Positions 17,568 through 36,444 of a stretch of DNA of 64,000 bases are shown piece by piece (position 1 is the stretch's first letter; the number at the start of each line of letters is the position of its first letter). Below the pieces are notes generated by a model, which was not told where the DNA came from, ran no database searches, and saw only the letters and a list, made by a program, of their open reading frames with translations. The DNA is from Thermoanaerobaculia bacterium (GTDB lineage: Bacteria > Acidobacteriota > Thermoanaerobaculia > UBA5066). The DNA lies in contig CAWFJJ010000008.1 of the NCBI GenBank assembly GCA_963816185.1, positions 1 through 64,000 of the forward strand, written 5' to 3'. Position numbers and translations under genes: made by a program.

Positions 17568-19466
17568 CTAGCGACCTTCGGCGAGCGCGCGGGCCTCCCG
17601 GACACGCGCGGAGCGAGGCGCTCTCTCTTCCGCCTTCGCAAGCTCTTCCTCGAGATCTCCGCGGACGTCGGCGAACGCGAGACCCATGACCCAGCTCGCG
17701 TCCGGACCCGGGTTCGGCCCGAGAGAGCGCACCTCGTCCTCGACGAAGCGCATCACGCGCGTATCGGCCGCGGGCCCCGCGTCCTGGAGGGCGCGGTCAA
17801 GAAGCTGCCAGGCCTCGGCCGTGCGGCCGTCGGCGTGAGCGACGCCGGCGCGCGTGAACGCGTCGAGAAAGCGCGCCTCGCCCGTGGGGCGTCGGGAAAG
17901 CACCTCGCGCGCCGTCCCCATCGCGGAGACGAAGTCCTCCCTCCTCAGGCGGCCTCGTCCCTTCGTGTCCAGAGCCTCCCAGGCCGCCGAAAGCTGCGTG
18001 TCGCCCGAGAACGCGGCGCCGGAGAGGAGAGGGGGAAAAGAGGTTTGCTTCGGAAGGGAACGTAGGGCGGCACCAGAGCGTTTCGTGCCGCCGGTTGCGC
18101 GGGACTCTCCGGTGGATTTTTCTTCGAAGGGTGATTGCCCCGATGCAGCCGCGCGCGGTTCGCTGTCGCGCGGAACGGCGGCGCCGGCCGCGTCGCCGCT
18201 GAGCTCATTCACCTTCGAAGAAATGCCGGACGATGAGGCGGCGATGGCGCTCGTCGAAGCGGACGCCACCCCGATGGCCGGTGTCTCTTTCTCATTCGAA
18301 GGGTTTGCGGGCGATGCGGTCGGCGGAGCGCTGGTCGTGAGCGCCGCCGCCGCCGTTGGCGCGGGCCAGACTTTCAAAACCTCAAGCGAAGCCGGCGCGC
18401 CCTTCGGCGGCGCCGGTCGAAGGAGCAGATAAATGCCTCCTCCCGCGCTGAGGAGAAGGAGCGCGGCGAGGATGAGCTTGGCGCTGCGCGTCGGATCCGG
18501 CTGCGTCTCCTGCGGCTTTTTCGTCCCCGAGGCCGGCGCCGCGAGAGCCTGGGCGCCGATCGCCGGGGCCGAGATGACCGTCCGCGCTTGCGACTCTACG
18601 TCCACGTCCTGTGGCACGGTCGTCGTGCTCGCGGTCACGCCGAGCGCCGCTCCGAGCGCGCCGACGAAAGCGCCGCAGGAGTCGAACCGGTCAGCCGGTT
18701 CCTTCGAGAGGCCGCGGGCGAGTACCGCATCCACGGCGGGGGCGGTGCCCGGCAAGACCGACGAGAGCGGCGGAGGAGGCGTCGCGACGTGCTGGTGAAG
18801 GACCGCGAGAGGCGACTGCGCAGAGAACGGGACGCGTCCCGCGAGGAGCTCGAACGCGATGACGGCGAGCGCGTACTGGTCGGCGCGGCCGCTCAGAATC
18901 GCGCCGGTCGCCTGCTCGGGCGCCATGTAGAGCGGCGTTCCCAGCACCGTGCCCGTTGCCGTGAGTCCCGACGAGACATCGGCGCTGCGCGCAAGGCCGA
19001 AGTCGGCGAGGAGCGGCCGGCCCTGCGAGTCCAGAAGGACGTTCCCCGGTTTGACGTCGCGGTGGAGGATGCCCTTGGCGTGCGCGTGGTCGAGAGCCGA
19101 GGCGATTGCCGAAAGCCACGTGATCGCCAAAGCGGGCGGAACCGGCCCCGCGACACGACCCTTGAGCGAGCCGCCGGCGACGAGCGGCATGACGAGGTAC
19201 GACACCTCGTCGCCGTCGATCTTTTCGGTGCCGTAGTCGAAGACCGGGAGGACGTTCGGGTGCTCGAGGCCGGCGACGAGACGCGCTTCCCTCAGGAAAC
19301 GCTCGCGAAACGTCGAATCGGCGGCGACGGGACCGAGGATGACCTTCACGGCGACCGTCCGCTTGAGAGTTTCGTCCTCGGCCTTCCACACCTCCGACAT
19401 TCCGCCCACGCCGGCCTTCTCGAGGAGGCGGTAGCGGCCGAGGATGGTGCCGGTCGTGATCGGCAT
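17568..19466 (-). CDS. Membrane-anchored Ser/Thr protein kinase (Hanks type)
   Basis: GVGGMSEV, VAVK, HRDVKPGN, DFG, GTPLYMAPE; TM LILAALLLLSAGGGIYLLL; low-complexity linker. Confidence 0.92.
   Translation of the reverse strand: MPITTGTILGRYRLLEKAGVGGMSEVWKAEDETLKRTVAVKVILGPVAADSTFRERFLREARLVAGLEHPNVLPVFDYGTEKIDGDEVSYLVMPLVAGGSLKGRVAGPVPPALAITWLSAIASALDHAHAKGILHRDVKPGNVLLDSQGRPLLADFGLARSADVSSGLTATGTVLGTPLYMAPEQATGAILSGRADQYALAVIAFELLAGRVPFSAQSPLAVLHQHVATPPPPLSSVLPGTAPAVDAVLARGLSKEPADRFDSCGAFVGALGAALGVTASTTTVPQDVDVESQARTVISAPAIGAQALAAPASGTKKPQETQPDPTRSAKLILAALLLLSAGGGIYLLLRPAPPKGAPASLEVLKVWPAPTAAAALTTSAPPTASPANPSNEKETPAIGVASASTSAIAASSSGISSKVNELSGDAAGAAVPRDSEPRAAASGQSPFEEKSTGESRATGGTKRSGAALRSLPKQTSFPPLLSGAAFSGDTQLSAAWEALDTKGRGRLRREDFVSAMGTAREVLSRRPTGEARFLDAFTRAGVAHADGRTAEAWQLLDRALQDAGPAADTRVMRFVEDEVRSLGPNPGPDASWVMGLAFADVRGDLEEELAKAEERAPRSARVREARALAEGR
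18117..18223. repeat. Palindromic element copy 1 (in kinase linker)
   Basis: TTTTTCTTCGAAGGGTGATT (18117-18136) ... CTCATTCACCTTCGAAGAAA (18204-18223). Confidence 0.8.
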
Positions 19467-19489
19467 GGCTGGTCGCGGGAGTTCGATCT

Positions 19490-21979
19490 TCAGCCGGCCG
19501 CGGCGGAGTCCGCCTCGGCCGGAGCGTGGTAGAGGACCACGGAGGACGGTCCCGTGCGGATCGCCTGCTCGAGGGCCTCGTTCGCGCGAAGAACGAGCGT
19601 CGCCGTGTCGAACGCATCGTCGGGGTAGACCGCGACGCCGGCGCTGAGGCCGAGGCGGATGCCCGCGGCGGCGAGGCGCTCGTCCATTCCCTGCTGGAAG
19701 TTCTTCTGGACCGAGTGAAGAGCGCGGTGCGCCTGCACCTTGCCCGCCTCGAAGATGAGGATGAAGAACCGGTCGTCCTCGTCGCGGGCGACGAAGTTGA
19801 CGGCGCGCGTCGAGCGCACGAGCTTCGCGGCGAGCTTCGGAAGGAGGGAGTCGCTCGAGCCGGGGCCCAGCTTTCCGAAGGCTTCCTTGAGCCCGTCCAT
19901 TCGCAGATGCACGACCGCGATCGATTGGCCGTTGCGCTCGGCGCGCCTCAGCTCGGACTCGAGTCGCTTGGCGAGGGACGAACGGTTGTAGAGGCCCGAC
20001 TGGCTGTCCCGCTCGGTCTGCTGCTCGATGAGCTTCATGAGGCGCGCATTGTGGAGAGCGACCGCCGCGGCGTCCGCGAGAAGGTCGAGCCGCTCCTTGA
20101 GGTCCACCGGCCAGTCTTCGCTTCCGCGCCGCGCGCCGACGGAAAGGACGCCGATGAGCTCGTCGTGATAGGTGAGAGGCACGGCCGCCGCGCGGATGAG
20201 CGGCGCGCCGGCGCCCGCCGGGTTGCCCGGGAAGAACGCGGCTCCCTCGCCGGGCCCGGCGATACAAGGCGTCTTGTCGAGAAACGTGCGGACGATCGGG
20301 TGTCCCGTCTGCTCGAAGGCCACGGCGCGCCCCACTTCGTCGCCCATGCCTTCGCCCCAGCGCGTCGAGATCTTCGCGGACTTCGAAGCCGGATCCGCGT
20401 CCCAGAACTGCGCGGCGTCGGCCTTCAACAGCGTGACGGACTGCTCGCAGAGCGTCTGCTTGATGCGGTCGACGTCGAACGTCGTCGAGAGCGAGCGGCC
20501 GACCTCGCGCAGCCGGTCGAGAAAACGGTACGACTCCCGCTCCTGCTGAAGGAGGCGGGCCGAGGTGATCGCGAGCGACACCTCGACGCCGAGCGCCTCG
20601 AACGAGCGCAGCACGTCGGACGAGAGGGCCTCGCTGCGCGCGCCCGTCACGCCGCACAGGACGCCTGCGGGAGCGCCGCGGTACGCGAGGGGCACGGCGA
20701 GGAGACCCAGGGGAGCCGGGAGCTGTGCGACGGCTGCCCCGGTCGGCAGGAGGGAAGCTCCGTGCGGATCCGACCCGACGTCGGTGAGCAGAAGGTGCGA
20801 TCCCTCCGTTGCGAGGTGCCCGAGAAGGGCGTTCGGGATCTCCACGGCAGCGGTGTTTCCCCGTCCCTTGACGTAGGCGGCCTGTGTACCCGGCAGCTCG
20901 CCCGCGGGGACGAGCCGGAGCGTGCAGACGTCGAAGTCGAATTGGGGGCCGAGCTCGTCGACCGTGCGCGACGCGATCGCCGAGACGTCGGTCAGGCCCG
21001 AAAGGGCCGTGTGGAGGCGGCCCACGAACGCATTGCGCTCTCCGTGCCGGCGCTCGGCCTCGAGGAGTCGCGCCTTGTCGAGGGCGCCTGCGGCGAGCTT
21101 CGCGAGCTCCTGCGCGAGCCTCAGCTCCTGCGGCGTGAGGGCGAACCCTCCACGGCGCGACATCGTGAGAAAGCCGAACACGAGCTCTCCGGCGTGGAGC
21201 GGCAGACACATGCGGAGGCGGCGCGGAGGATTCGAGCCGGGCTCGTCCTCGAACGCGGGGCCGTGCGCCGAAAGGCTGCGGCCCAAGAGCTCGTCCGCGT
21301 CGAGAGGGCGTCGGCCCAGTAAGGGCCGCTCGCCGCTCGTCGAGCCGCCCTGCGTCAGGATTTCCGTGACCTCTTTGGTTTCGGGATGGAATCGATACGC
21401 GGTGACGCGGTCGAACTCGAGCTCGCGTGACAGCGAGGCCACGGTGAGCCGGATGACCTCGTCGGGGTTCAGGGAGAGGAAAGCTCCCGAGGCGAGCTCG
21501 AAGAGCGCCACGGCCTCCTCGCGCCTCTTCATCAGCGTCCCGAGCGTGCGCTCGCGTTCGAGGACATGGCCGACGGTGCGCGCGAAGATGCGAACCCCTT
21601 CCTCCGCCTCGCCCTCTCCCGCGGGCATCGTGTCGAGCACGACGCCGAAAACGGCCTGGACCTGATCCTTCACCTTGACGGGCGCGCCGTAGAACGAGAG
21701 CCCGCCCTCGCTGACCTTCTTGGGACGGCCTTGCACGAGGACCTCGCCGAGGTGCTGGTTGAGGCGCGTCTCCGCGGCCGCCGCGACGCTGGACCGGCCG
21801 GCCCGCGTCATGGGCGGAACGCCGGCGCCGGGCAGCAGGGACACGACGGGGGCGTCGAAGAAGTGGAGCGCCGCGGTCAGAATCCCGCCGATTGCCTCGT
21901 CGAGGAGCAGGCCTTCCTTCAGGGCGCCGTCGAACGCCTTGAGAAGCGGCAGGCCCGGAAAGCGGGAAAAGGAAGCCAT
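19490..21979 (-). CDS. Multi-GAF protein with degenerate GGDEF domain
   Basis: Repeated GAF signatures (LPL..GE.VFG.L, VPL..RG...GVL, AVALHNARL); D..SGLYNR; the GGDEF position reads RDEDDRF. Confidence 0.85.
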   Translation of the reverse strand: MASFSRFPGLPLLKAFDGALKEGLLLDEAIGGILTAALHFFDAPVVSLLPGAGVPPMTRAGRSSVAAAAETRLNQHLGEVLVQGRPKKVSEGGLSFYGAPVKVKDQVQAVFGVVLDTMPAGEGEAEEGVRIFARTVGHVLERERTLGTLMKRREEAVALFELASGAFLSLNPDEVIRLTVASLSRELEFDRVTAYRFHPETKEVTEILTQGGSTSGERPLLGRRPLDADELLGRSLSAHGPAFEDEPGSNPPRRLRMCLPLHAGELVFGFLTMSRRGGFALTPQELRLAQELAKLAAGALDKARLLEAERRHGERNAFVGRLHTALSGLTDVSAIASRTVDELGPQFDFDVCTLRLVPAGELPGTQAAYVKGRGNTAAVEIPNALLGHLATEGSHLLLTDVGSDPHGASLLPTGAAVAQLPAPLGLLAVPLAYRGAPAGVLCGVTGARSEALSSDVLRSFEALGVEVSLAITSARLLQQERESYRFLDRLREVGRSLSTTFDVDRIKQTLCEQSVTLLKADAAQFWDADPASKSAKISTRWGEGMGDEVGRAVAFEQTGHPIVRTFLDKTPCIAGPGEGAAFFPGNPAGAGAPLIRAAAVPLTYHDELIGVLSVGARRGSEDWPVDLKERLDLLADAAAVALHNARLMKLIEQQTERDSQSGLYNRSSLAKRLESELRRAERNGQSIAVVHLRMDGLKEAFGKLGPGSSDSLLPKLAAKLVRSTRAVNFVARDEDDRFFILIFEAGKVQAHRALHSVQKNFQQGMDERLAAAGIRLGLSAGVAVYPDDAFDTATLVLRANEALEQAIRTGPSSVVLYHAPAEADSAAAG

Positions 21980-22019
21980 CGGACTCGCCGCCATAATAGC
22001 GCCCGCTGGAGGTGCCCTG

Positions 22020-23522
22020 ATGCGCCCGGACATCGCGGAGACGGACGCTCTCGCCGACTCTCTCGCGCGGCTTTTGCCCGCGCTCGAGTCTTTCACGCGC
22101 TTCGAGGGCGCCGATTCGGCGGCGCGGCGGACCGTCTGGCGCGCGGCTCTCGACGAGCCTCTGCCCGAGACCGGCGCCGGGCGCGAAGCGGTTCTCGAGA
22201 CCCTGCGTGTCCACGTCGTCGCGAACGGGCTCCGGATAGGCGCTCCGGGCTTCTCGGGCTGGGTCACGACGATGCCGACGACGGTGCCGGCGGTCGCTCA
22301 GCTCGCGGGAGCGATCGCGGCGGCGCAGCGCTGGTGGGCGACGCCCGGCAACTTCCTCGAGGTCCTCGCCCTCCGCTGGCTCCAACGCCTGGTCGGACTC
22401 CCCGATGCCTTCGAAGGAGCGTTCACGAGCGGCGGCGCCACGGCCAACCTCATCGCGCTTGCCGCCGCGCGCCAGCACGCGGGTGAAAAGAGAGGCTTCG
22501 ATCCCAGCCTCGACGGCCTCCAGCGCCTCGTCGAGCCGCGCGTCTATGCGTCGACGGAGGTGCATCACGTCGTCCACCGCGCCTGCGGCGTCCTCGGGCT
22601 CGGCCGTAGGGCGCTCCGCACGGTTCCCGTCGACGCGAACCGGAAACCGGACCTCTCGGCGCTCGAGCGTCTCCTCGACGAGGACCTCGCGAAAGGCCGC
22701 ACGCCCGTCGCGGTCGTCGCGTCGGCGGGAGACGTGAACACGGGCGCCGTGGAGCCGATCGACGCGATGCGCGAGATCGCGCACACACGCGGCGTCTGGC
22801 TGCATGTCGACGGTGCGTACGGCGGCTTCGGCGTTCTCGACCCGCGCGTCGCGCCGCTCTACGGGGACCTCTCGAAGATCGACTCGTTCGCGGTCGACCC
22901 GCACAAGTGGATGGCGGTTCCCGTGGGGTGCGGCGCGGGGTTCGTGCGCGACGGCGGCCTCCTCGCACGCGCGCTCACGCTCGAGCCGGCCGCCTATGTC
23001 GAGATGGCGCCGACCTCGACGGGCGATCTCGGTTCGCCGTTCGACGAGCGGGGAGAGGGCAATCCCGACTTTTCGGTGGACCACTCGGCGCCGGCGCGCG
23101 GCCTCACCGTGTGGGCCGCGCTCAAGGAGATGGGCGCCGCCGGCATGCGCGCGCGCGTCGTCCGCCACCACGACTGCGCGCGCCGCGTGGCCGCGCGTGT
23201 CCGCGAGCATCCCCAGCTCGAGCTTCTCGCCGAGCCGGTTCTCTCGATTTGCTGCTTCCGTGTGAAGCCGAAGAAGGTCACCGACGAGGCCGTGCTCGAC
23301 GCGTTGAACGAGAAGATCCTCCTCGCCGTGCGCGCACGCGGCCGGGCGATCCCCTCGCACACGCGCGTGAACGGCCGCTTCGCGATCCGGCCGTGCTTCA
23401 TCAATCCCCGCTCGACGCTCGCGGACGCCGACGCCACGGTGGACGAGGTGCTGAGCGTGGCGGGGGAGCTGGGCGCGATCGGGGAGCGCGCGCTCGAGGT
23501 CCGGATCCCGCCTCTAAGATAA
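22020..23522 (+). CDS. Group II PLP-dependent amino-acid decarboxylase
   Basis: [30 protein letters not shown]; SD GGAGG. Confidence 0.9.
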
Positions 23523-23548
23523 GGACCCGTCTCACGAGGGAGGCTTCG

Positions 23549-24559: not shown

Positions 24560-24565
24560 CCGCGG

Positions 24566-25447: not shown

Positions 25448-25471
25448 GGGCGCTCCTTGCGACCCTCGATC

Positions 25472-25951
25472 TTATGATTCCTGGGCCGGCGTTTCGCCCG
25501 GACCGCGCCCGGTCGCCCGGAGGATCTGGGCGACCATGAGCAGCATGCCGAGGTCGCGCAGGATGTCGAGGCGCATGTCGGCGAGGCGTTCGCCGACGGT
25601 TTTGTTCGCCGCCAAAACGTCGAAACAGCCGCAGTCGATCGCGTTGCCGCGCGCAAGGTTCAGCGAGATCGCGACGAGAAAAACGAGGAGGAGCGCACCG
25701 GCGAGGGCCGCCGACGCACGCGTCCAGATGCCGAGGATGAGGGCGAGGCCGGCGAGGAGCTCGAGCCAGGGCATGACGAGCGCCATGAGATTCACGAACG
25801 CGCCAGGCACGAGCCGGTAGTTGTAGATCATGTGCGCGAAGGAGGGCGGGTCGACGAGCTTCGGCAGCGCCGCCGCGACGAAGAAAAGGCCGAGCGCGAT
25901 CTGAACGCGCACCGTCAGCCAGGGCGAGGCAAGCGCTTCCTTCGGCGTCAC
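25472..25951 (-). CDS. MauE/DoxX-family membrane protein
   Basis: KLVDP..F..I.NY, PWLEL, IDCGCF, RDL; GTG overlaps the upstream stop. Confidence 0.85.
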   Translation of the reverse strand: MTPKEALASPWLTVRVQIALGLFFVAAALPKLVDPPSFAHMIYNYRLVPGAFVNLMALVMPWLELLAGLALILGIWTRASAALAGALLLVFLVAISLNLARGNAIDCGCFDVLAANKTVGERLADMRLDILRDLGMLLMVAQILRATGRGPGETPAQES

Positions 25952-26747
25952 GACTCGGGCCCGGTCGCGCTCTTTCCCCCGCGCTTGATCCAGTCGGGCC
26001 AGCCGTCGCGGTACACGAGAAGATTGTTGAAGCCCGCGCCGAACAGCTTCTGAGCGAGCATGTGTGAATCCTCGCAGTCCCCGCCGGAGCAGTAGAGGAC
26101 GACCGGGATCGCACCGTCGCGCCCCTCGCCGACGAGCGCCGTCACGCGGGCGTCGATGTCGCTCTCCCAGACGGGGAACGCGCGCGCGCCGGCGATATGG
26201 CCCGCCTCGTAGTCCTTCGTACGGCGCGCGTCCAGAGTCAGTACGCCGTGCGCGACGAGCCACGCGACATCGTCGCCCGAGATGTCGACGTAGGGCTTGT
26301 TGTGGGGCGGGAATCGGCGAAGCAGGTCGGCGGGGGAGGAAGAGGAATTCTTTGCTTCGGACCCTTCGGCGAGCGCAGTGGCCTTCGGGGCGAGCTTTTC
26401 GCGAGGGCCAGGTTGTTTTTCTCCGAAGGGTGATTTGGCCGGCGCCTGGGCGCCCGTGGTGGCCTTCGAACCGACGATTGTCGCGGGGGCGGCCGGCGCG
26501 GTCGCCTCGCCCTCATTCACCTTCGAAGAAGATTCGGACGGCGCCTTCGCTCCCGAGTCAGCAGGTGCGGTACAGCGGCGGCGCCCGAGAGGGAAACAGA
26601 AGGAGAAGGAACCTTCAGCGCATCCGGGTAGCTGCCGACGAGCGCGAGCTTGCGCTCGCGCGACGCGAGCGCGTTCGCGACGAGAGCGCAGAGGATCGCG
26701 GCCAGAACGAGCGTGGCGGTTTCGAGGAGGTGCCTGCGGAGGCGCAT
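25948..26747 (-). CDS. Membrane-anchored rhodanese-domain protein, frameshifted near 26568
   Basis: N-terminal TM in ORF 26517-26747; LDAR..DY..GHI.GA, LYCSGGDCEDS, YRDGWPDW in ORF 25948-27054. Confidence 0.85.
26416..26530. repeat. Palindromic element copy 2 (in rhodanese linker)
   Basis: TTTTTCTCCGAAGGGTGATT (26416-26435) ... CTCATTCACCTTCGAAGAA (26512-26530). Confidence 0.8.
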
Positions 26748-28634: not shown

Positions 28635-28654
28635 TCCGTCGCTCCGGCGGCGAG

Positions 28655-29074: not shown

Positions 29075-29080
29075 TACGAG

Positions 29081-29097
29081 CTTAGATTAAGTCTAGA
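29081..29097. promoter_or_regulatory. Putative Per/Fur-box-like operator overlapping the regulator's promoter
   Basis: AT-rich dyad TAGA-TTAAG-TCTA immediately upstream of the Fur-family start. Confidence 0.5.
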
Positions 29098-29122
29098 TTG
29101 CCTCGAGATCAAGGACCGTTGA

Positions 29123-29150
29123 GGAATAATCCAGCCAACGGGCCGCATCT
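29123..29150 (+). promoter_or_regulatory. Possible ECF autoregulatory promoter
   Basis: GGAATA-N16-GCATCT upstream of the ECF sigma gene; resemblance only. Confidence 0.3.
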
Positions 29151-29171
29151 CCTTGCGGAAGAACAACCTCG

Positions 29172-29750: not shown

Positions 29751-30598
29751 CCGCTCCGCTCCAGCTCCGCGACTACGCCTGTGCCAAGGTGCGCCGGCGA
29801 CTGGACTCCTATCTCGCCGGAGAGCTCTCCGTCGATCTCTCGCACGAGATCCTCGAGCACCTCGACCGGTGCGCGGAATGCCGCGCCGAATCGGACGCCC
29901 GCGAGAAGCTTCGCGCGTCGTTTCGCCGGGTCGGGGAGGCGACGCCCGAGCCGCGTGACGGGTTCGAGAGCCAGGTCCGAGCGCTTCTTCTGAGGACGCC
30001 TCTCAAGCGCCCGATGGGCGCGGGGCTCCTCCTCGCGGCCTCTCTCGTCCTCGGGGCGGGCGTGACCGCATGGGTCGTTCTCTCGCGGTCCGCAACACCG
30101 GGATCGCCGGCGGCCGGCGCCGTGCTCGACGCGTCCGCCGCGGATTTCGCGGCGTTGAATCACAAGAACTGCACGCGCGCCGGAACGTGGCCGCGGGAGG
30201 CGGCCTCCGCCGAGGCGTTTACCGAGCACCTCGACGCGCGTCTCGCGGCGGCGGCGCGCGCCGCCACCGCACGCCTTCCCGGCTACACTCCGGTCTCGGC
30301 CCACGAGTGCGCGCACGCGGGCGAGAGGATCTTCCACATCATCCTCAGGCGCCCTTCGGACGAGAGCCCGGACGGCCTCGTCTCGGTCGTCGTGACCCGG
30401 CCCGGCTCCGTGCTCGCGGCGCGCTCGTCGGTCACGGCCCGACTCGGCGTCGCTCGCCGGCTGGGCTATTCGGTGGCGGGAGCGCGGGCCGCGAACGGAA
30501 ACCTCGTCCTCGTCGTGTCGAGCGCCGGCGAGAGGGAAACGGCCGAGATGGAGCGCGCGATCCTGCCCGCGCTCGCGACGGCCGTCGCGGCCCCCTGA
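29747..30598 (+). CDS. Zinc-binding (zf-HC2) membrane anti-sigma factor
   Basis: HLDRCAEC motif, TM AGLLLAASLVLGAGVTAWVV; GTG overlaps the sigma stop. Confidence 0.85.
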   Translation: MTAPLQLRDYACAKVRRRLDSYLAGELSVDLSHEILEHLDRCAECRAESDAREKLRASFRRVGEATPEPRDGFESQVRALLLRTPLKRPMGAGLLLAASLVLGAGVTAWVVLSRSATPGSPAAGAVLDASAADFAALNHKNCTRAGTWPREAASAEAFTEHLDARLAAAARAATARLPGYTPVSAHECAHAGERIFHIILRRPSDESPDGLVSVVVTRPGSVLAARSSVTARLGVARRLGYSVAGARAANGNLVLVVSSAGERETAEMERAILPALATAVAAP

Positions 30599-30609
30599 GC
30601 GGTCCGCGG

Positions 30610-31317
30610 TCAGTTCGGCGTGGCGCCGTGGGCGTCCGTGATGAACGGGCGGCCGATACGCGACCAGCGCGGGCCCTTGAAGAACTGCTGGTTCCAGCTC
30701 CACATGATGCCGACCGCCCGCCCAAGCAGGTCCTTCTCGGGGCGCGTGCCGAAGAAGCGCGCGTCGCGGCTCTCGTCGCGATTGTCGCCCATGAGAAACA
30801 CCTCGCCCTCCGGCACGGTGATAGGCCCGAACGTTCGGAACGCCGGACGGTCCGGCAGGACGCGAACGGGGTGCGCCCTTCCGGCGAGAATCTCCGTGCC
30901 GAGGAGAATCGGCTCGCCCTCGTCGTCCTTTTGCTCGGGCAGGAAGTCGACCGGCTGCTTCTTCCCGTTCACGTAGAGGGTCTCGTTCCGGAGCTCGACG
31001 ACGTCGCCCGGGAGACCGACGAGGCGCTTGACGAACGGCACGGTCCCGCCGTCGGGGTTGCGGATCACGACGACGTCTCCGCGCTTGGGCGCGCCCGTCT
31101 CGAACAGGCGGATCTTCGAGAAGGGGATCCGGACCTGGTAAGCGGATTTCCAGACGAAGACGCGATCACCCTCGAGGATCGTGGGTTTCATGGAGCCCGT
31201 CGGAACGACGTACCAGTCGGCCAGAACGGACCGTCCGGTCAGGATGATGGCGGCCATCAGAACGAGCTGGCGAACGTCTTTGAGGAGGGCGGCGCGCTTT
31301 TCCGGCGTGAAGGCCAT
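30610..31317 (-). CDS. lepB: Signal peptidase I
   Basis: VPTGSMKPT, FVKRLVGLPGD, GDNRDESRDAR. Confidence 0.93.
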   Translation of the reverse strand: MAFTPEKRAALLKDVRQLVLMAAIILTGRSVLADWYVVPTGSMKPTILEGDRVFVWKSAYQVRIPFSKIRLFETGAPKRGDVVVIRNPDGGTVPFVKRLVGLPGDVVELRNETLYVNGKKQPVDFLPEQKDDEGEPILLGTEILAGRAHPVRVLPDRPAFRTFGPITVPEGEVFLMGDNRDESRDARFFGTRPEKDLLGRAVGIMWSWNQQFFKGPRWSRIGRPFITDAHGATPN

Positions 31318-31376
31318 GACGGCGCAGATCTTCGCACAAACCGTGCCGGCGCACCGGGTCGCGTTATCCTCGGCGC

Positions 31377-31865
31377 ATGGCACGCTATACGGACCGCCAT
31401 GCGGCCTCGGGGGTGGGCGACGCGTTGCCGAAGCTCGAGACCTGGCCCTCCCAGTACGCCTCCGATTACGAGATCGTCATCACGATCCCGGAGTTCACGT
31501 CGATCTGCCCCAAGACGGCCCTTCCCGACTTCGCCACGCTGACCGTCACGTACGTTCCGGACCGCCGGTGCGTGGAGCTGAAGTCTCTGAAGGAATACGT
31601 GAACTCTTACCGGAACCTCGGCATCTTCAACGAGAACGTCGTGAACCGGGTCCTCGAGGATCTCGTTCGCGCGCTCCGGCCACGTCGGATGGCCGTGCGG
31701 GGCGCCTTCACGCCCCGCGGCGGCATTCAGACGACGGTCGAGGCTTGCTTCCCGCGCGCGGAAGCGGGCGCGGCAAGCGCTATTTTGCCGCGGGCTTCGC
31801 GGCGGGGTTTCCCGGCCGGGTCGTCCCGTCGGGCAGAAGTCGGCGGTAGACCGAGAGCGCGTTGA
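31377..31865 (+). CDS. queF: NADPH-dependent preQ0 reductase (type I)
   Basis: EFTSICPKT..PDF, ELKSLK, F.PRGGI; 3' end uncertain because it overlaps the convergent gene. Confidence 0.92.
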   Translation: MARYTDRHAASGVGDALPKLETWPSQYASDYEIVITIPEFTSICPKTALPDFATLTVTYVPDRRCVELKSLKEYVNSYRNLGIFNENVVNRVLEDLVRALRPRRMAVRGAFTPRGGIQTTVEACFPRAEAGAASAILPRASRRGFPAGSSRRAEVGGRPRAR

Positions 31866-32706
31866 GGGCGTTCAGCTCGCGCGGGCAGTAGTCGCCCAGC
31901 TTCTCGGCGACGAGCTCTCCGGAGATGCGGGCTTCCGGGGCGTTCTGCTTCTTCTTTTCGACGAGGAAGGCGAGCATCGACGTGAGGTATTGGCGGGTTT
32001 TTTCGATCTCAGGCCCCCCGTTCGCCGTAGGGTTACCACGAGTCGGGACGAGACCTCGCACCCCGAGCGCGTCGAATCGCTCCAGGATGGCGAGCCAGCC
32101 CTTGATGTCGCTGTCGGGGTCCGAGAGCATCGGGCAACGGTCCGTCGTCACGAGATCGCCCGCGAACACCGTGTGCGTCGAAGCGTCGAAGACGTAGAGG
32201 TCGAACGCGGTGTGCGCGTTTCCCGCCGGCACGCCGATCTCGAAAGCCTGCTTGCCGGCCACGAGCACGATGCGGTCGAAGATCCCGATCACGTGGGGAG
32301 CCTTCGCTTTCTCCTGGGCGATCGCGCCCGTGGCGCGAGCGTTCACGAAGATCGTCGCGTCCGTTGGAAGAAAAGTCGTGAAGCCGTCGTTCGAGTCGGA
32401 GTGAATGTGCGTCATCGCGATCCATTTGATCGGCTTGTTCTTCGTGGTTCTCGCGATCTCGGATTTGAGATTCTTCGCATCCGCCGCGGTCGCACCCGTG
32501 TCGATGACGAGAACGCCGTCGCCCGTGTCGATCCACGAGCAGTTCGTTGGACCGAACCGGCCATACCACGAGTTCGGATAGGGCTGTGCCACCTCGAAGG
32601 GGGGAAGGTCGGGAGCCTTCGGTTTCGGCCTTTCTGCCGCGAACGCGGAGCGAGCGGCGAGAACGAGGGCGAGAGCGGCGAGCGAGGTCGGGATCGATCG
32701 ATTCAT
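31780..32706 (-). CDS. Exported metallo-beta-lactamase-fold protein (degenerate metal site)
   Basis: Signal peptide; IDTG, THIHSDS, AHT, FAGDL, VPTRG. Confidence 0.8.
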   Translation of the reverse strand: MNRSIPTSLAALALVLAARSAFAAERPKPKAPDLPPFEVAQPYPNSWYGRFGPTNCSWIDTGDGVLVIDTGATAADAKNLKSEIARTTKNKPIKWIAMTHIHSDSNDGFTTFLPTDATIFVNARATGAIAQEKAKAPHVIGIFDRIVLVAGKQAFEIGVPAGNAHTAFDLYVFDASTHTVFAGDLVTTDRCPMLSDPDSDIKGWLAILERFDALGVRGLVPTRGNPTANGGPEIEKTRQYLTSMLAFLVEKKKQNAPEARISGELVAEKLGDYCPRELNALNALSVYRRLLPDGTTRPGNPAAKPAAK

Positions 32707-32717
32707 TGAGTCTCCTG

Positions 32718-34247
32718 TCATTGGGGACGGTCGGGTCCGACGGCCGAAGCCGGCGATTCGGAATGTTCGTGAGCGGAGGCGAGAGCGGCGGCGAGCGTCC
32801 CGTCGCGGAACGACGCGAGGGCGGACTCCCTCTCCCGTGCGATGCCGTCCTCGAGACGTTGGAGGCGATCCCTCGAGGCGAGGGTCCGCTTGGCGGCGGC
32901 GAGAGAGGCGATCGGCCGTTCGGCGTAATGCGCCGCGCGCTGAAGTGTCAAAGGCAGCGCGGAGCCGTCCTCGGCGACGAGATCGACGAGGCCGAGCTCC
33001 CGGGCGCGAGCGGCCGAGATCGTCTCGCCCGAGAACGCGACGTCGGCGGCGGCCGAGGGCGACGCGAGAGACGCGAGAAAGACGCTCGCGCCCGCCTCGA
33101 GCGCGGGGAAGAACGGCGAAACACCGAAGACCGCTTCGTGCGGCGGGCTGCCGCGCGCGATCCGCTGGTCACATGCGAGAGCGAGGGAGAAACCTGCCCC
33201 GAAGGCCGGACCATCGACGGCCGCGAGAATCGGCCGGGATGCCGACGCAAGCGTGTGTGCGGCCCGCGAGAGCGCGTCGAGCTGGCGGGCGAAGCCCTCC
33301 TCGTCGTGGAGCGCGACGAGAGCCGCGAGAAGGTCCGGGTCGAATCCCCGGGAGAAGGCGTCCCCCAGGCCCGTCAGGACGATGGCCGGAACCGTCGGAT
33401 CCTCGGCGAGCGTCGCCACGGTGTCCGCGAGCAACTGGGCCATATCTCCCGCGAAGGCGTTCCCCACCGCCGGCCTCGCGAGCTTCACGACGGCGAGCGG
33501 GCCTTCGAGGGAGACGAAGACGAGCGGTTCGGCCGCGCGGCCGCCGGCGCGCGCCTGGGCCTTGCAGGCGTCGAGAAACACCTCGAACAGCGCTTTGTGC
33601 TTCCGCTCCGCGACGAGGTTCTCGGGGTGCCACTGAACGGCGGCGACGAAACCGCCCCCGGGCCGCTCGAACGCCTCGACGAGGTCGTCCGCCGACGCCG
33701 CCAGCGGTACGAGGCCCGGTGCGAGATCTTTCACGCCCTGGTGATGCCGCGAGTTCACGGTCGTCCCTTCGAGCGCAGCGACGGCCGTCGCGAATGGCGT
33801 GGGTGAGGACATCCGCCGCGCCCGCACGACGTGCGCGGGGCGGTCCTTTCGCGAGTGCGGATTCGCATCTGTCTCATGCGAGACGCCGCGCGAGCGCTGT
33901 GAGGGCAGGTCCTGCCACAGCGTGCCTCCAAGCGCGACGTTCATCGTCTGAATCCCGCGGCAGATGCCGAAGACCGGTGCGCCGAGCTTCTCCGCGGCGG
34001 AAAAGAGCGTGAAGTCGAGCGTGTCCCGTTCGGGATGGAGATCGAGAGTCGGCGTCGAGGGCGCCTCGCCGTAGAGGTTCGGCGCGACGTCGGCTCCGCC
34101 CGCGAGCAGCAACCCGTCGAACAGGCCGGGATCGGGGTCGCCCGGAGTCACGACGACGACCTCTTCGGGGAGGGCTCCCGCCGCGAGGAGGGCGCCGCGA
34201 TACGTCGCGTTTGGCTGATTCGCGTCGGACGCGATGACGATCTTCAT
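32718..34247 (-). CDS. Fusion of peptidase C26 (PuuD-like gamma-glutamyl hydrolase) and crotonase/enoyl-CoA hydratase domain
   Basis: GGADV, GICRGIQ, VNSRHHQ, VQWHPE followed in frame by NAF, AFSRGFD, AVDGPAFGAGFSLALACD, GLVD. Confidence 0.85.
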   Translation of the reverse strand: MKIVIASDANQPNATYRGALLAAGALPEEVVVVTPGDPDPGLFDGLLLAGGADVAPNLYGEAPSTPTLDLHPERDTLDFTLFSAAEKLGAPVFGICRGIQTMNVALGGTLWQDLPSQRSRGVSHETDANPHSRKDRPAHVVRARRMSSPTPFATAVAALEGTTVNSRHHQGVKDLAPGLVPLAASADDLVEAFERPGGGFVAAVQWHPENLVAERKHKALFEVFLDACKAQARAGGRAAEPLVFVSLEGPLAVVKLARPAVGNAFAGDMAQLLADTVATLAEDPTVPAIVLTGLGDAFSRGFDPDLLAALVALHDEEGFARQLDALSRAAHTLASASRPILAAVDGPAFGAGFSLALACDQRIARGSPPHEAVFGVSPFFPALEAGASVFLASLASPSAAADVAFSGETISAARARELGLVDLVAEDGSALPLTLQRAAHYAERPIASLAAAKRTLASRDRLQRLEDGIARERESALASFRDGTLAAALASAHEHSESPASAVGPDRPQ

Positions 34248-34318
34248 AGACGGCTGAAAGAGGCTTTCCGGGCGGGCAGCGCCGCGCGGGAGGCGGGTCG
34301 GGCGATTATAGAGACGAC

Positions 34319-35491
34319 ATGGGAACCGGACGGCGTGTCGTCGTGACGGGAATGGGCGCCGAGACCGCTCTCGGCCGCGGCGTGGACGCGCTCTGGGAGG
34401 GCGCGCTTCTCGGGCGGTCGGCGATCCGGCCGGTCACGCGGTTCGACACCCGGCGATTTCACGCGCGACAGGCGGCCTTGATCGATCGCGACCGGGGGCC
34501 GGACGGCGAGGATTTGGAGACCCTATTCGCCTGTGACGCCGCGATCGAGGCGCTCGCGTCGTGCCCTGACTTCGGCGGCGGCAACGCGGGAATCGCCGTC
34601 GGGACGACGCTCGCCGGAAACGGAGCCCTCACGAATTGGCTCGCGTCGCGGACCGGCGGAGCGGCGACGCTCTCCCGAGGCGACCCCGGCGCACTGTCTC
34701 GCGAGCTTGCCGAACGGCACGGCGCGCGCGGCCCCGTCGCGACGGTCTCCGTCGCGTGCGCGTCGGGCGCGGCGGCGGTCGGGCTCGCCGCGGAGTGGAT
34801 TCGAGAGGGGCGCGCGACCCGGGTCCTCGCGGGCGGGGCCGACGCCGTCTCTCCCTTCGTCTTCTCCGGCTTCGACGCGCTGCGCGCGCTCAGCGCGTCC
34901 GTGGCCCGGCCGTTCGACGTCGCGCGTGACGGCCTCACGCTGGGCGAAGGCGCGGGGTTCCTCCTTCTCGAGGAGGAGGGTCAGGCGCGCCGGCGCGGAG
35001 CGGCGATTCTCGCGTGGGTCGCAGGATACGGTTCGGGCTCGGACGCGCATCACATGACGCGCCCGGATCCCGAGGGGCGCGGCCTCGCGAGAGCCGTGAA
35101 GACCGCGCTCTTTCAGGCGGGCCGGGTTCCGTCGGACGTGGACTTCGTCAGCGCCCATGGCACGGGGACGACGTTCAACGACGCGATGGAAGAGGCCGCC
35201 CTGGCGCACGTCCTCGGCGCCAGAGCACGGTTGGTGCCGGTGAACGGGATCAAGGGAGCGATCGGGCATACGCTCGGCGCGGCGGGCGCGCTCGAGGCGA
35301 TCCTTTCCGTGCTCGTCCTCGCTCATCAACGCGTCCCGCCCACGGCCGGGCACGCGACCGCGCGCCCGGATTCGCCGCTACGGATCGTCTCCGGTGCGCC
35401 GCTTTCCGCGGAGAAGCCGATCGCCATCGCGCTGTCGACCTCGGCGGCTTTCGGGGGCACGAACGCGGCCCTCATCCTGGAGCGCGCGTGA
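34319..35491 (+). CDS. Beta-ketoacyl-ACP synthase (FabF-like KS)
   Basis: VVVTGMG, VACASG, GEGAG, AHGTGT..ND, KGAIGHTLGA, AFGG.N. Confidence 0.92.
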   Translation: MGTGRRVVVTGMGAETALGRGVDALWEGALLGRSAIRPVTRFDTRRFHARQAALIDRDRGPDGEDLETLFACDAAIEALASCPDFGGGNAGIAVGTTLAGNGALTNWLASRTGGAATLSRGDPGALSRELAERHGARGPVATVSVACASGAAAVGLAAEWIREGRATRVLAGGADAVSPFVFSGFDALRALSASVARPFDVARDGLTLGEGAGFLLLEEEGQARRRGAAILAWVAGYGSGSDAHHMTRPDPEGRGLARAVKTALFQAGRVPSDVDFVSAHGTGTTFNDAMEEAALAHVLGARARLVPVNGIKGAIGHTLGAAGALEAILSVLVLAHQRVPPTAGHATARPDSPLRIVSGAPLSAEKPIAIALSTSAAFGGTNAALILERA

Positions 35492-36444
35492 GGCAAGTCT
35501 TTCTCGTCTCGGCGGCGCTCGCGGACGCGGGCGAGAACGGCGCGCGTGAGGATGCGAACCGCCTGCGCCGGATGGACCGCTTTGGCCGGACGGGCTTCCT
35601 CGCGGGAACGCGCGCCTTCGCGGTCTCGGGCGCTCCTCGTCCGGCGGCGCCGGACGGGCGCTCCGGCGTCATCGTCGGCACGCGGCACGGCTGCCGCCCG
35701 GCGATCACGGAGCACGCCGCGCGACTCGCGGCGGCGACACGTGTCGAGGACCTCGCCCCCTCGGTTTTCGCGGCTACCGTTCACAACAGCGTGAACGGCG
35801 AGCTCGCCATGGCCCTCGGCCTCGGCGGCGTCTGCGAGACGATCGTCTCGGGGCGCACGTCCGGCCTCGAGGCCCTGATTCTCGGGGCGCGGCGCGTCGC
35901 CTCGAGCGACGCGGACCGCCTGCTCGTCGTCGCGGCCGAGGGCGTCGACGACGCGGGGCGTGAGGCGTGGGAAGAGGAAAAGCTTGCTTTCGGAGAGAGG
36001 GCGGCGGGTGTCGACCTGGTTGAAACTGGCGCGGCCGTGCTGCTCCGTGCAGAGAAGGGGGAACACAGCATTCGCTTTGTCGAAGGTTGTCTTTTCTTCG
36101 AGCCGGATGCGCGGCGGGCGTCGGCGCGCGTGTTGGAGTGGATGAGAGATTTCGAGGCGCAAGGCGGGGCCGGCCTCACGCCTCCAGCGGTTGTCGAACT
36201 TTGCTCGCCGGTGTATGAAGATTTCTTAGAAGGGGAAGAAAGAGGAGGAGAAGGGGGCGCGCGAAGCATCGAGCGATTCGGCGCCGCGGGCCTATACGAA
36301 ATTGCCTGCGAGGTTCTTGCTGGGCGCGCGCCGGCGACGGATGCGCTCTCGACCCATTCACCTTCTAAGAAAATACGAGCGTACGTAACGCGAGACGTGA
36401 CAGGTGCAGTGGCTGCGGTCGCCCTTGAGCTCTTCTCTTTCTAA
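35488..36444 (+). CDS. Ketosynthase chain-length-factor-like protein (no catalytic Cys)
   Basis: RRMDR, GVIVGT..G, PSVFAATVHNS; the Cys position reads SGRTSG; GTG overlaps the KS stop. Confidence 0.75.
   Translation: MRQVFLVSAALADAGENGAREDANRLRRMDRFGRTGFLAGTRAFAVSGAPRPAAPDGRSGVIVGTRHGCRPAITEHAARLAAATRVEDLAPSVFAATVHNSVNGELAMALGLGGVCETIVSGRTSGLEALILGARRVASSDADRLLVVAAEGVDDAGREAWEEEKLAFGERAAGVDLVETGAAVLLRAEKGEHSIRFVEGCLFFEPDARRASARVLEWMRDFEAQGGAGLTPPAVVELCSPVYEDFLEGEERGGEGGARSIERFGAAGLYEIACEVLAGRAPATDALSTHSPSKKIRAYVTRDVTGAVAAVALELFSF
36221..36374. repeat. Palindromic element copy 3 (in CLF-like gene)
   Basis: ATTTCTTAGAAGGGGAA (36221-36237) ... CATTCACCTTCTAAGAAAAT (36355-36374). Confidence 0.65.

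Follow-up and report, generated by a model that had tools for sequence, protein, structure and literature searches.

A short interspersed palindromic DNA repeat family across Thermoanaerobaculia with copies translated inside unrelated genes

Three palindromic elements and their host genes

The analyzed stretch of 64,000 nt from a Thermoanaerobaculia bacterium, hereafter the window, has a GC content of 68% and harbors three elements, at positions 18114-18227, 26415-26535 and 36219-36374, each composed of a GC-rich spacer between two AT-rich inverted arms. The arm consensus is TTTCTTNGAAGG(G)TGAATG, and with both arms facing inward the element reads TTTCTTNGAAGG(G)TGAATG...CATTCACC(C)TTCNAAGAAA. 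Motif matches in the window exceed the chance level: allowing up to two mismatches, TCACCTTCKAAGAA was found five times against 0.36 expected, a number reached in none of 100 shuffles, and TTCTTNGAAGGNTGA seven times against 0.80. A profile of the arm recovers six arms forming three inward-facing pairs, five of them with E-values from 3e-6 to 1e-3 and the sixth with E = 1.1.

Copy 1 lies in a gene for a Ser/Thr protein kinase of 632 aa (17571..19466, minus strand; Pfam Pkinase, E = 9e-38), which is built from one membrane helix, a linker and a C-terminal domain and whose closest orthologs bear the name Thermoanaerobaculia (Acidobacteriota). In gene sense, the first arm (18203..18227, minus strand) is TTCTTCGAAGGTGAATGAG and is read in the linker as (I)SSKVNE (profile E = 3.8e-6). 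It is followed by a GC-rich spacer of 67 nt (18137..18203, minus strand) with the translation LSGDAAGAAVPRDSEPRAAASGQ, and by the second arm (18114..18141), which is TTTTTCTTCGAAGGGTGATT on the plus strand and is read as SPFEEK from the minus strand (E = 3.6e-4). The reading frame is identical on either side of the linker; GC3 periodicity is weak over 17980-18460.

Copy 2 is associated with a membrane-anchored rhodanese (25951..26747, minus strand; Pfam Rhodanese, E = 2e-11). Its first arm (26509..26535, minus strand; E = 2.8e-6) is read as SSKVNE in the frame of the rhodanese domain, its GC-rich spacer spans 76 nt (26436..26511, minus strand), and its second arm (26415..26441, plus strand), TTTTTCTCCGAAGGGTGATT, gives SPFGEK on the minus strand and is a weak match to the profile (E = 1.1). 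The original prediction placed this copy inside one gene, which applies to the orthologs but not to the window gene as one open frame. Here, the ORF of the N-terminal membrane anchor runs from 26747 down to 26517, where it is terminated by a TGA inside the first arm of copy 2, and the rhodanese domain is encoded in a different frame. Since three orthologous rhodanese loci have a single uninterrupted frame, a 1-nt indel is located somewhere within 26545-26615 of the window and reflects either a mistake in the assembly or a genuine frameshift.

Copy 3 falls within the final approximately 75 codons of a ketosynthase-like (chain-length-factor-like) ORF (35473..36444, plus strand; Pfam ketoacyl-synt, E = 5e-9). 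The plus-strand arm (36219..36238), TTTCTTAGAAGGGGAAG, gives (D)FLEGE close to the C-terminal end of the ORF (E = 1e-3), and the ortholog at locus L035 has YEDFLEGQ at this position. The opposite arm (36351..36374) is TTCTTAGAAGGTGAATGGG on the minus strand and is read as HSPSKK on the plus strand (E = 1.6e-5); on the minus strand, a TGA within this arm terminates the ORF 36368-37321.

The letter-level comparison of the copies agreed with what had been proposed. The left arms (18117-18136 and 26416-26435) are identical at 19 of 20 positions and the right arms (18204-18222 and 26512-26530) at 19 of 19, the spacers measure 67 and 76 nt, and TTTGCTTCGGA stands behind a purine run both at 18044 and at 26351. 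Likewise, copy 3 has TTCTTAGAAGG at 36223 and TCACCTTCTAAGAA at 36358, and the three translations SSKVNE...SPFEEK, SSKVNE...SPFGEK and DFLEGE...HSPSKK are correct. The proposed compensatory change (C/A in one arm, G/T in the other) does not hold for the family as a whole, as in 41 elements the base in one arm is independent of that in the other (A,T 13; C,G 10; C,T 12; A,G 6) and all four bases occur at the variable position of the second arm.

Lineage distribution and genomic contexts

A scan with a 17-mer of the arm, for which each species was represented by one genome and all counts of matches and loci are lower bounds, detected at least 117 matches in at least 115 loci. At least 87 of these matches, in at least 85 loci, belong to at least 26 assemblies titled Thermoanaerobaculia, Acidobacteriota or Acidobacteria with 63-75% GC. 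Among the matches listed, a second inverted arm is present within 240 nt in 65 of the 87 from this lineage and in none of the 30 from other taxa. Along this line, the arm profile yields 176 matches across the 85 lineage loci listed and nothing beyond the seeded match in each of the other 30. Neighboring profile matches in the listed loci constitute 91 pairs, of which 71 are oriented +/-, three -/+ and 17 in the same direction; tandem arm duplications were seen at L044 and L077.

The elements have a total length of approximately 90-130 nt with arms of about 17-26 nt, and spacer lengths range from about 43 to 212 nt with a mode at 53-69 nt. Spacers of non-orthologous copies resemble each other no better than shuffled sequence does (similarity 0.538 versus 0.517) and thus give no sign of recent copying. 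Scan, pairing and spacer comparison together uphold the suggestion of a repeat family, enriched in one lineage, in which the inverted ends are fixed but the cores are not conserved, and the motif was found to be over-represented. By architecture and lineage distribution, the copies in the window are members of a short interspersed palindromic DNA repeat family across Thermoanaerobaculia (Acidobacteriota), a group of soil and sediment bacteria.

For 59 long-flanked matches, genomic context was called from the GC content at each codon position. Fourteen of them lie inside ORFs with the same frame on both flanks, on both strands and in at least four frames; the remaining ones are intergenic or located at gene boundaries. 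Examples are the nuoF-nuoG interval (L019) and the region between rubrerythrin and the next gene (L033, L101). Copies also lie in the rpsE-rpmD and rplP-rpsQ intervals, in the passage from the Rieske gene to cytochrome b, and upstream of purA. The translated hosts include the kinase, the rhodanese, a Mur ligase, ribosomal protein L30, the signal peptide of a lipoprotein and the ketosynthase-like tail. In the kinase, the rhodanese and the protein at L114, the arm peptides adjoin a membrane segment. Copies inside genes add or reshape low-complexity linkers, N-terminal extensions and tails.

Age of the elements and conservation of the arms

Among 33 kinase orthologs, the first-arm peptide is found in 31 and the second-arm peptide in all; their linkers vary in length, and the frame is intact in every one. 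Because nearly all of these orthologs, at 68-85% identity, carry both arms, the elements in the window are not recent arrivals. The rhodanese orthologs are more variable: 8 of 22 have the first-arm peptide and 19 of 22 the second. Proteins without the first arm are 225-241 aa long and those with it 243-296 aa, which corroborates the idea that in-frame copies lengthen linkers in unrelated proteins; equally long linkers without arms were not found among the orthologs. Half of the rhodanese orthologs keep the second arm without a recognizable first arm, and hence pairing is not obligatory. Among the lipoproteins, L002 is devoid of the spacer and second arm that are present in frame in the signal peptide at L073 and L023. 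The elements are old and have been passed down at orthologous sites across many species; in the rhodanese and lipoprotein orthologs, segments bearing arms are gained and lost as in-frame indels.

The original prediction further held that conservation acts at the nucleic-acid level, and several lines of evidence concur. The arms make use of codons that are rare in the genome, namely TCT (4.9% of Ser codons), TCA (2%), AAT (16%), GAA (19%), AAA (15%) and TTA (0.1% of Leu codons), and the TTA is retained at all three rhodanese ortholog loci. In orthologous lipoproteins, one and the same arm is read in two frames, as LPLPRK at L073 and as TPFKEK at L023. Intergenic copies containing stop codons are kept at orthologous loci (L033/L101 and L040/L052). 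In 16 ortholog pairs, the arm not used in the locus search has an identity of 0.86, while the spacer reaches 0.68 and the two flanks 0.67 and 0.66; the loci were found with the first arm, so that first-arm conservation is given by construction and the ortholog comparison is conditioned on it. The arms are held by DNA/RNA constraint rather than by protein constraint.

Related repeat systems and competing explanations

DNA repeats that are translated inside genes are already known, and the Thermoanaerobaculia family is a new example. Our best reading is that it resembles REPINs and Rickettsia palindromic elements (RPEs). In Pseudomonas and Enterobacteria, REPINs consist of two REP sequences and are mobilized by RAYT transposases. 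According to PMC3337134, they are inverted repeat pairs in several spacing classes with spacers that are never identical, are capable of forming hairpins, number hundreds per genome and are inherited vertically. The likeness extends to inverted short repeats, a less conserved spacer, several spacing classes, a possible hairpin and vertical persistence. However, each single REP is already an imperfect palindrome, and REPs are mainly extragenic, flanking the RAYT gene, whereas many copies here are intragenic and the arm has only the loop-less 8-nt palindrome CTTCGAAG, which is absent in the TTAGAA variant. Mobility, implied by the suggested MITE/REP-like nature of the family, gained no support: a RAYT or other transposase domain occurs neither in the 62 ORFs of the window nor in the 91 ORFs within 1 kb of the 59 loci, where the sole recombinase is a XerC/D-like integrase beside L016.

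RPEs are described in PMC10969869 and PMC3733652 as palindromic, in frame and translated as an extra peptide, their insertions being ancient and shared by species. Both they and the present family are palindromic repeats of approximately 100-150 bp in frame in many unrelated housekeeping genes. They differ in host phylum and base composition, and RPE families are described with a peptide conserved along the element, whereas here the arms alone are conserved, with a free spacer and several frames. According to PMC3733652, intragenic REP dimers are also translated in frame, and the GTAG-/CGTC-tagged REPs of Di Nocera et al. (2013) are stem-loops with a stem of 5-13 bp, a loop of 2-20 nt and the tag at one end. 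Tagged REPs share with our family the predominance of head-to-head dimers, units or dimers inside known genes, and the encoding of 20-30 residues or more, frequently close to either terminus of the protein and in what are argued to be flexible linkers (PMC3733652). In contrast to them, the arms described here are not stem-loops and the family is without a GTAG/CGTC tag.

We favor, at somewhat better than even confidence, an old palindromic repeat family that is translated where it lies in genes and whose arms are kept by DNA/RNA constraint through recognition in trans. Elements inside genes would be translated in any stop-free frame, giving SSKVNE...SPFEEK, FLEGE...SPSKK or LPRK. A putative trans-acting factor, be it a REPIN-type transposase or a host protein that co-opted the repeats, may recognize the paired arms sequence-specifically, as the stem of a hairpin or cruciform or as two inverted sites. 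Arm-bearing segments might be gained and lost through recombination or slippage at the arms. The hairpin, the factor and any past transposition are proposed here. Folding of whole elements gives modest z-scores (-2.4 to -2.9), and the spacers by themselves show no advantage over shuffled ones (mean z = -0.3). Complementarity is at the permuted level both inward of the arms (6.22 observed, 6.09 permuted) and outward of them (6.25 and 6.14), which lends no support to a structure beyond the arms.

A host cis-regulatory RNA element is the foremost alternative, though an unlikely one; its hairpin would adjust translation, pausing or the stability of the mRNA in the manner of REP hairpins within operons. 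By its letters, the first arm has a stretch, AGAAGGUGA, that looks like a strong Shine-Dalgarno sequence ahead of an AUG, whereas UCACCUUCU in the second arm could mask the first and may resemble the 16S rRNA tail as generally known. Many copies are situated at gene starts or between co-transcribed genes, deep and frame-independent arm conservation fits pairing with a conserved partner, and by eye, copies with a 55-nt spacer (L040, L052, L099, L101) hold a 22-codon ORF from the ATG of one arm to the TAA/TAG of the other. Yet this mini-ORF is restricted to some copies, orientation is unbiased relative to transcription in coding and intergenic copies alike, there is neither covariation nor spacer structure, and the RNA family search returned no match. 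Bacterial MITEs such as Correia elements have terminal inverted repeats, are found at gene ends and can alter coding ends; MITEs are typically also marked by duplicated target sites, by cores that are conserved and by the existence of a parent insertion sequence. An active MITE, with copies still jumping and the arms serving as terminal inverted repeats bound by the transposase that a full-length insertion sequence encodes elsewhere in the genome, seems improbable to us. Size, inverted arms and gene-end sites are Correia- and MITE-like, presence and absence vary among orthologs, and tandem and nested arrangements occur. Against this, no target-site duplication was present at the element ends inspected, and neither a conserved core nor a parent insertion sequence was found in the window and the loci examined. 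Moreover, the outer ends are not fixed, as the flanks grade into GA/CT or TCCGAA runs, the cores are unrelated across loci, the same sites are occupied in species at 68-85% protein identity, and no transposase lies among the ORFs surveyed.

We consider it less probable still that molecular drive or protein binding maintains the arm as a DNA motif, such as an uptake-signal-like sequence or the site of an abundant DNA-binding protein, with pairing being secondary. Conservation at orthologous coding and non-coding sites in several frames, a property of uptake sequences, and the solo second arms of the rhodaneses would suit it. The inward orientation of 71 of the 91 neighboring pairs in the listed loci and the partner within 240 nt for 65 of 87 listed matches do not, a spacing of 43-212 nt is too variable for a fixed protein dimer, and known uptake sequences are far denser than the roughly one arm per 10 kb of the window. 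A protein-level module, in which selection on the amino acids keeps SSKVNE and SPFEEK as short linear motifs within a disordered linker common to the proteins, would account for their persistence in the kinase orthologs amid an otherwise variable linker and for their place beside a membrane segment in the kinase, rhodanese and L114 proteins. It is largely refuted by stop-bearing intergenic copies, frame changes of one arm between orthologs and hosts that share nothing (L30, Mur ligase, lipoprotein signal peptide, ketosynthase-like tail); the same DNA also lies on non-coding strands, its rare codons are preserved, and we regard this reading as very improbable. Invertible segments, with the arms as recombinase sites and a flipping spacer that recodes proteins, are the least credible proposal. 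Short in-gene segments bounded by inverted arms, and strands that are both often open in GC-rich DNA, would permit them, but 15 ortholog pairs align directly at 0.54-0.91 and inverted at 0.48-0.67, near background and never clearly better, and most spacers, at 45-70 nt, are short for recombinase looping.

Degenerate units in the window

Beside the three elements, further units recall the arms. A purine run with TTTGCTTCGGAAGG (18020..18065, minus strand) appears by eye as a degenerate second arm plus CT tract and is read as LPKQTSFPPLLSG; all 33 kinase orthologs share its PPLLSGA without change. Its counterpart, a purine run with TTTGCTTCGGA at 26325..26365 (minus strand), is read as SEAKNSSSSP, and SEA(K/R)xxSSSP is found in rhodanese orthologs. 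Neither unit is detected by the arm profile, so that homology of the kinase unit to the arms is putative. CTCTTTCTCATTCGAAGGGTTTG (18281..18310, minus strand; family D6, 69% identity) is read as NPSNEKE and resembles a first arm minus six bases. Its profile match is at chance level (E = 24), and in kinase orthologs the corresponding peptide is ISSNEKE, ISSSVKE or ISSKVNE.

Two degenerate TTTCTTTCT(T/C)A units follow accD (62817..62890, plus strand; family D20). Their supposed relation to the arms is weak, with a profile E of about 30, again at chance level; locus L034 has a bona fide arm just after accD, at the orthologous place. As a minor observation, in the subgroup of kinase, rhodanese and L30 copies a CGTC lies upstream of the arm at a distance of 8-9 nt, which may be chance.

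Copies in the window and their host genes

The GC content of the window is 62-73% throughout, and its genes, as assigned by Pfam, include AceK, isocitrate dehydrogenase, citrate synthase, GatB, RuvC, AccD, FtsX, signal peptidase and Ser/Thr kinases. The closest relatives of the window kinase stem from metagenome-assembled genomes named Thermoanaerobaculia or Acidobacteriota. Since the window genes proved to be bacterial housekeeping genes, the idea of a eukaryotic introner with the arms as splice sites was rejected.

The element is composed of two AT-rich inverted arms around a GC-rich spacer. The arm letters and coordinates, the spacers of 67 and 76 nt, the peptides and the motif TTTGCTTCGGA, all named in the original prediction, were confirmed on the window sequence. 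The arm motif reveals 5 matches in the window versus 0.36 expected, and 7 versus 0.80 expected in a second motif search. With a profile based on arms from outside the window, exactly six arms are detected, forming three inward-facing pairs, with E between 3e-6 and 1e-3 for five arms and E = 1.1 for the arm at 26415-26441. Extra motifs had also been claimed at 18044, 26351, 18285 and 62817-62890; by eye these look like degenerate arms, but they are non-significant with the arm profile. The units at 62817-62890 sit where the orthologous locus L034 (L denoting loci from our genome scan) carries a true arm directly after accD.

Copy 1 (18114-18227, minus strand) is located in the linker that joins the membrane helix of a 632-aa kinase to its C-terminal domain. 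Codon-position GC indicates the same frame on either side of the element, and this signal fades across 17980-18460. Copy 2 (26415-26535) is part of the linker in a membrane-anchored rhodanese, whose N-terminal ORF runs in a different frame in the window and stops at a TGA inside the arm. At three orthologous loci, anchor, linker and domain are found in a single frame, and the window thus has a 1-nt indel in the variable stretch 26545-26615. An assembly indel is plausible here because AceK carries a similar single-base break near 7425. AceK itself is split between two frames (7300-7480), its regulatory-domain match breaking at profile position 216/217; the frame change lies within a conserved stretch and reflects either an assembly indel or a pseudogene.

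Copy 3 (36219-36374) occupies the last approximately 75 codons of a ketosynthase-like ORF, where translation of the first arm gives FLEGE and that of the second HSPSKK, as is also the case in the close orthologue L035. An acyltransferase-like gene (Pfam AAT, PF03417) extends over 36368-38330 on the minus strand, with an apparent frame switch near 37150-37220 according to codon-position GC; its second ORF ends at a TGA inside the copy 3 arm and would share about 80 nt with the ketosynthase-like ORF.

Two further repetitive features were noted in the window. A 55-nt direct repeat (56562-56616 and 56778-56832, 93% identical, 216 nt apart) in a response-regulator/kinase/TonB-C gene points to a 72-residue unit duplicated within the gene. 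A conserved hairpin distinct from the arms, ATATGCGGCGGCTGC-loop-GCAGCCGCCGATAG, lies at 62885-62918, after a TTTCT-rich stretch downstream of accD. No match to it was obtained in the scanned loci by a pattern with a fixed 4-nt loop; by a looser pattern, it recurs at positions 1088-1122 of L036, an unrelated locus of another assembly, about 70 nt past an arm. It may represent a further small repeat family or a type of terminator.

Distribution, pairing and genomic contexts

A collection of species-representative genomes was scanned with the 17-mer TTCTTMGAAGGTGAATG, which gave at least 117 matches in at least 115 loci. Among the matches listed, 87 in 85 loci belong to 26 assemblies labelled Thermoanaerobaculia, Acidobacteriota or Acidobacteria in their record titles, with a GC content of 63-75%; the other 30 loci listed derive from unrelated taxa or other Acidobacteriota classes. 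Counts per assembly are lower bounds, the maximum being at least 12 matches in one assembly.

Of the 87 lineage matches listed, 65 have a second arm, defined as CACC(C)TTCKAAGAA with at most two substitutions, no more than 240 nt away, versus none of the 30 others listed, three of which stem from other Acidobacteriota classes; most of the remaining 22 lineage matches have a more degenerate partner by eye. The arm spacing clusters at 53-69 nt, with additional distances of 74-138 and 162-212 nt. The arm profile yields 176 hits in the lineage loci, with two hits in 57 and three or four in 16 of the loci listed; in all 30 other loci, the seeded hit stands alone. Adjacent profile hits face inward in 71 of 91 pairs in the lineage loci listed. 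Partner arms and their orientation in the lineage thus identify the inward-facing arm pair, not the single motif, as the unit.

The arm consensus is GGGGGGTTTTCTTCGAAGGTGAATGGGGGGGG, and a TTAGAA variant, present in 43 of the 87 lineage matches listed, is equally common. Non-orthologous spacers resemble one another no more than shuffled sequences do (0.538 versus 0.517); only a small subgroup from L019, L099, L101 and L104 shows weak similarity (0.63-0.69), at or just above the shuffled maximum of 0.67. Runs rich in GA or CT, or microsatellites of the TCCGAA type, border many intergenic copies. The arm borders in L033, L099, L113 and many other loci consist of (GAAGAG)n/(CTCTTC)n or (TCCGAA)n runs, which look like slipped copies of arm parts. 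Where CT runs are in frame, they encode Leu/Phe/Ser-rich signal-peptide or membrane stretches, e.g., in L002 and L073.

Genomic contexts were called from codon-position GC over 300 nt on each side for the 59 matches with long flanks, coding being defined by open frames together with this signal. At least 14 of the 59 lie within ORFs that keep the same frame on both sides of the arm. Five of these are read in the SSKVNE frame of the window kinase and rhodanese (L005, L014, L015, L055, L080), one in another frame of that strand (L062), and eight from the opposite strand in three frames (L013, L025, L041, L043, L049, L059, L064, L069). Several further long-flank copies have one weak flank, and the rest are located at gene boundaries or in intergenic regions. 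Additional copies were found in N-terminal extensions and signal peptides.

According to Pfam assignments of the neighbouring ORFs, host and adjacent genes are ordinary, comprising kinases, MFS transporters, Mur ligases, QueA, aconitase, NuoF/NuoG, ribosomal proteins L16/S17 and S5, Rieske and cytochrome b proteins, and chorismate synthase. In the rpsE-rpmD interval of L067, two first arms and one second arm lie in an apparent N-terminal extension of approximately 110 residues of ribosomal protein L30, which begins at an ATGA overlap with rpsE; the canonical L30 N-terminus has no start codon nearby. A whole element separates the start codon from the first membrane helix in L114, nuoF from nuoG in L019, and rubrerythrin from the next gene in L033 and L101. 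In the rplP-rpsQ interval of three assemblies (L011, L092, L102), an element is located in the L29 region of the ribosomal-protein operon; in one frame, a Lys/Ala-rich tail terminates at a TAA inside the arm. In the Mur ligase genes of L049, L087, L022 and L069, two arms flank about 50-70 residues between the middle and C-terminal domains, on the strand opposite to the search motif; the Pfam middle-domain match ends at profile position 138-145 of 200, and the flanked segment is either inserted or native.

Nucleotide-level conservation, age and turnover

Four lines of evidence bear out the claim of the original prediction that conservation acts at the level of the nucleic acid. Codon usage was taken from 7,337 codons of 21 confident window genes, in which TCT and TCA make up 4.9% and 2% of Ser codons, AAT 16% of Asn, GAA 19% of Glu, AAA 15% of Lys and TTA 0.1% of Leu. 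Despite such usage, the arms are written TCT TCG AAG GTG AAT GAG and TCA/TTA CCC TTC GAA GAA AAA, and the TTA is retained in all three rhodanese orthologue loci. The same second arm is read as LPLPRK in L073 and as TPFKEK in L023, two loci with orthologous beta-lactamase-like lipoproteins; the copy 3 orthologue in L044 was left out of this argument as its upstream frame is broken. Arms containing TAG or TAA are retained at orthologous intergenic sites (L033/L101 and L040/L052). Finally, among 16 orthologue pairs in which both loci carry an exact first arm, identity is 0.86 in the second arm, which played no part in locus retrieval, versus 0.68 in the spacer and 0.67 and 0.66 in the flanks.

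The copies are old but show turnover. Among 33 kinase orthologues, 68-85% identical overall, the first-arm peptide is present in 31 and the second-arm peptide in all 33, in a linker otherwise variable in length and sequence; extra arm copies occur in the database orthologues P0006, P0033, P0100, P0118 and P0120. Rhodanese orthologues contain the second-arm peptide in 19 of 22 cases and the strict first-arm peptide in only 8 of 22. Proteins without the first-arm peptide are 225-241 aa long, those with it 243-296 aa. The arms are fused and the spacer is gone in P0209 and P0216, and P0242 has two second arms. The lipoprotein of L002 reads MFFLEGEW-RKSSSS, where L073 and L023 have at least 24 extra in-frame residues, namely spacer and second arm, in the signal peptide n-region. 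Arm duplications were found in L044 and L077.

Because rhodanese and lipoprotein orthologues gain or lose arm-bearing segments, the segment behaves as an in-frame indel, a point that the original prediction had proposed to test. It is not a recent arrival, as nearly all kinase orthologues carry the arms. Shorter rhodanese homologues were considered as carriers of an empty site and rejected: these matches are for the most part genes called from a start within the linker and hence are uninformative. The empty-site question was answered by the rhodanese search at similar protein lengths.

Relation to named repeat families and possible role

REPINs, i.e., inverted REP pairs, are described in PMC3337134 as inverted conserved repeats whose spacing falls into several classes and whose spacers are identical in no two cases. 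Our elements share with them two inverted copies of a short conserved repeat and a less conserved spacer in between. However, the REPIN unit is itself a hairpin-forming imperfect palindrome, whereas inspection of the arms reveals only CTTCGAAG as self-complementary part, loop-less and losing its self-complementarity in the TTAGAA variant. REPs and REPINs are predominantly extragenic, in contrast to the read-through copies reported here. GTAG/CGTC-tagged REPs carry the tetranucleotide at one end of a short stem-loop; our arm consensus has neither, and CGTC precedes the arm only in a coding subgroup. REPs are further accompanied by a cognate single-copy RAYT, an IS200/IS605-type tyrosine transposase flanked by the repeats. 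Neither a RAYT/TnpA, for which a search had been proposed, nor any other transposase was found among the 62 window ORFs or the 91 ORFs within 1 kb of arms; one XerC/D-like integrase lies beside L016.

For the behaviour inside genes, the match is with Rickettsia palindromic elements (RPEs) and with the REP dimers that Di Nocera et al. described inside genes (PMC10969869 and PMC3733652). Like RPEs, our elements are palindromic repeats in frame in many unrelated protein genes and presumably translated, judging from frames that are open across 33 kinase orthologues and three rhodanese loci. Unlike RPE families, compared here by description, which show a conserved peptide along the element, they have unconserved spacers, and lineage and base composition differ as well. 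MITEs are characterized by a target-site duplication around terminal inverted repeats and by a conserved core from a parent insertion sequence with the same ends. By eye, no direct repeat was seen at the element ends in 87 copies, whose flanks are themselves inverted or simple runs, and the cores are close to shuffled similarity apart from the one weak subgroup. Integron attC sites have RYYYAAC...GTTRRRY end boxes and form cassette arrays beside an integrase; here, the arm sequences differ and the copies are dispersed among housekeeping genes instead of being arrayed. Since a unit hairpin and a GTAG/CGTC tag are lacking, a target duplication and a conserved core were not seen and the copies are not confined to extragenic DNA, we file the elements under no named family but as a putative new family of interspersed palindromic repeats with translated in-gene copies. 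Among the 10 papers listed of the 44 found by a full-text literature search on Thermoanaerobaculia repeats, none, judged by its listing, deals with such elements, and this search is our one basis for calling the family undescribed.

In our preferred reading, the arms would be kept constant by a trans-acting protein that recognizes their pairs in a sequence-specific manner. The main rival is a role at the RNA level, in which the first arm would serve as a strong Shine-Dalgarno-like stretch and the second arm, which may resemble the 16S tail, as its mask. Whole elements fold with z = -2.4 to -2.9, mostly due to the arms. Folded spacers were rejected because spacers fold no better than shuffles, as was an element-specific extension of the stem, because complementarity beyond the shared arms is not element-specific. 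The C/A and G/T position, interpreted as a compensatory change in the original prediction, varies in each arm independently of the other (13, 10, 12 and 6 in 41 elements), with all four bases represented. Searches of Rfam gave no match at gathering score in the window and two chance-level hits only (E = 0.8-1) in 10 canonical loci. None of 15 orthologue pairs showed an inverted spacer. By eye, only a few copies (L040, L052, L099, L101) contain a mini-ORF that begins at the ATG of the arm, and this ATG shares the frame of the following gene in L019 and L033, unlike in the orthologue L101; a start at this ATG was rejected, its frequency being about chance level by eye.

Returning to recognition of the arms, it is conceivable, though in our judgement rather unlikely, that they are a working host nucleic-acid signal and not a decaying parasite, i.e., a paired-arm site read by a Thermoanaerobaculia protein or by the 16S tail of the ribosome and selected at hundreds of loci, also inside coding sequence in several frames. 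If so, arm-bearing genes would carry a second, overlapping layer of information, and the family would also keep supplying new sequence for linkers and for signal-peptide and ribosomal-protein extensions.

Palindromic repeats lying in frame have mainly been known from Rickettsia and a few further bacteria, to which the present family adds a class of Acidobacteriota that is little studied and largely uncultured. Its signature is clean, with arms conserved as nucleotides yet translated in different frames and spacers that drift freely, and it allows a test of whether selection holds REPIN-like repeats inside genes. The copies constitute a natural series for how bacteria make disordered linkers, signal-peptide extensions and ribosomal-protein extensions from repeat DNA. 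In such genomes, the repeats also account for unusual patches rich in AT and rare codons and for gene calls that are split. In many rhodanese database entries (P0124-P0180), the protein begins within the repeat-bearing linker or directly after it and lacks the membrane anchor, an indication that these elements mislead gene callers.
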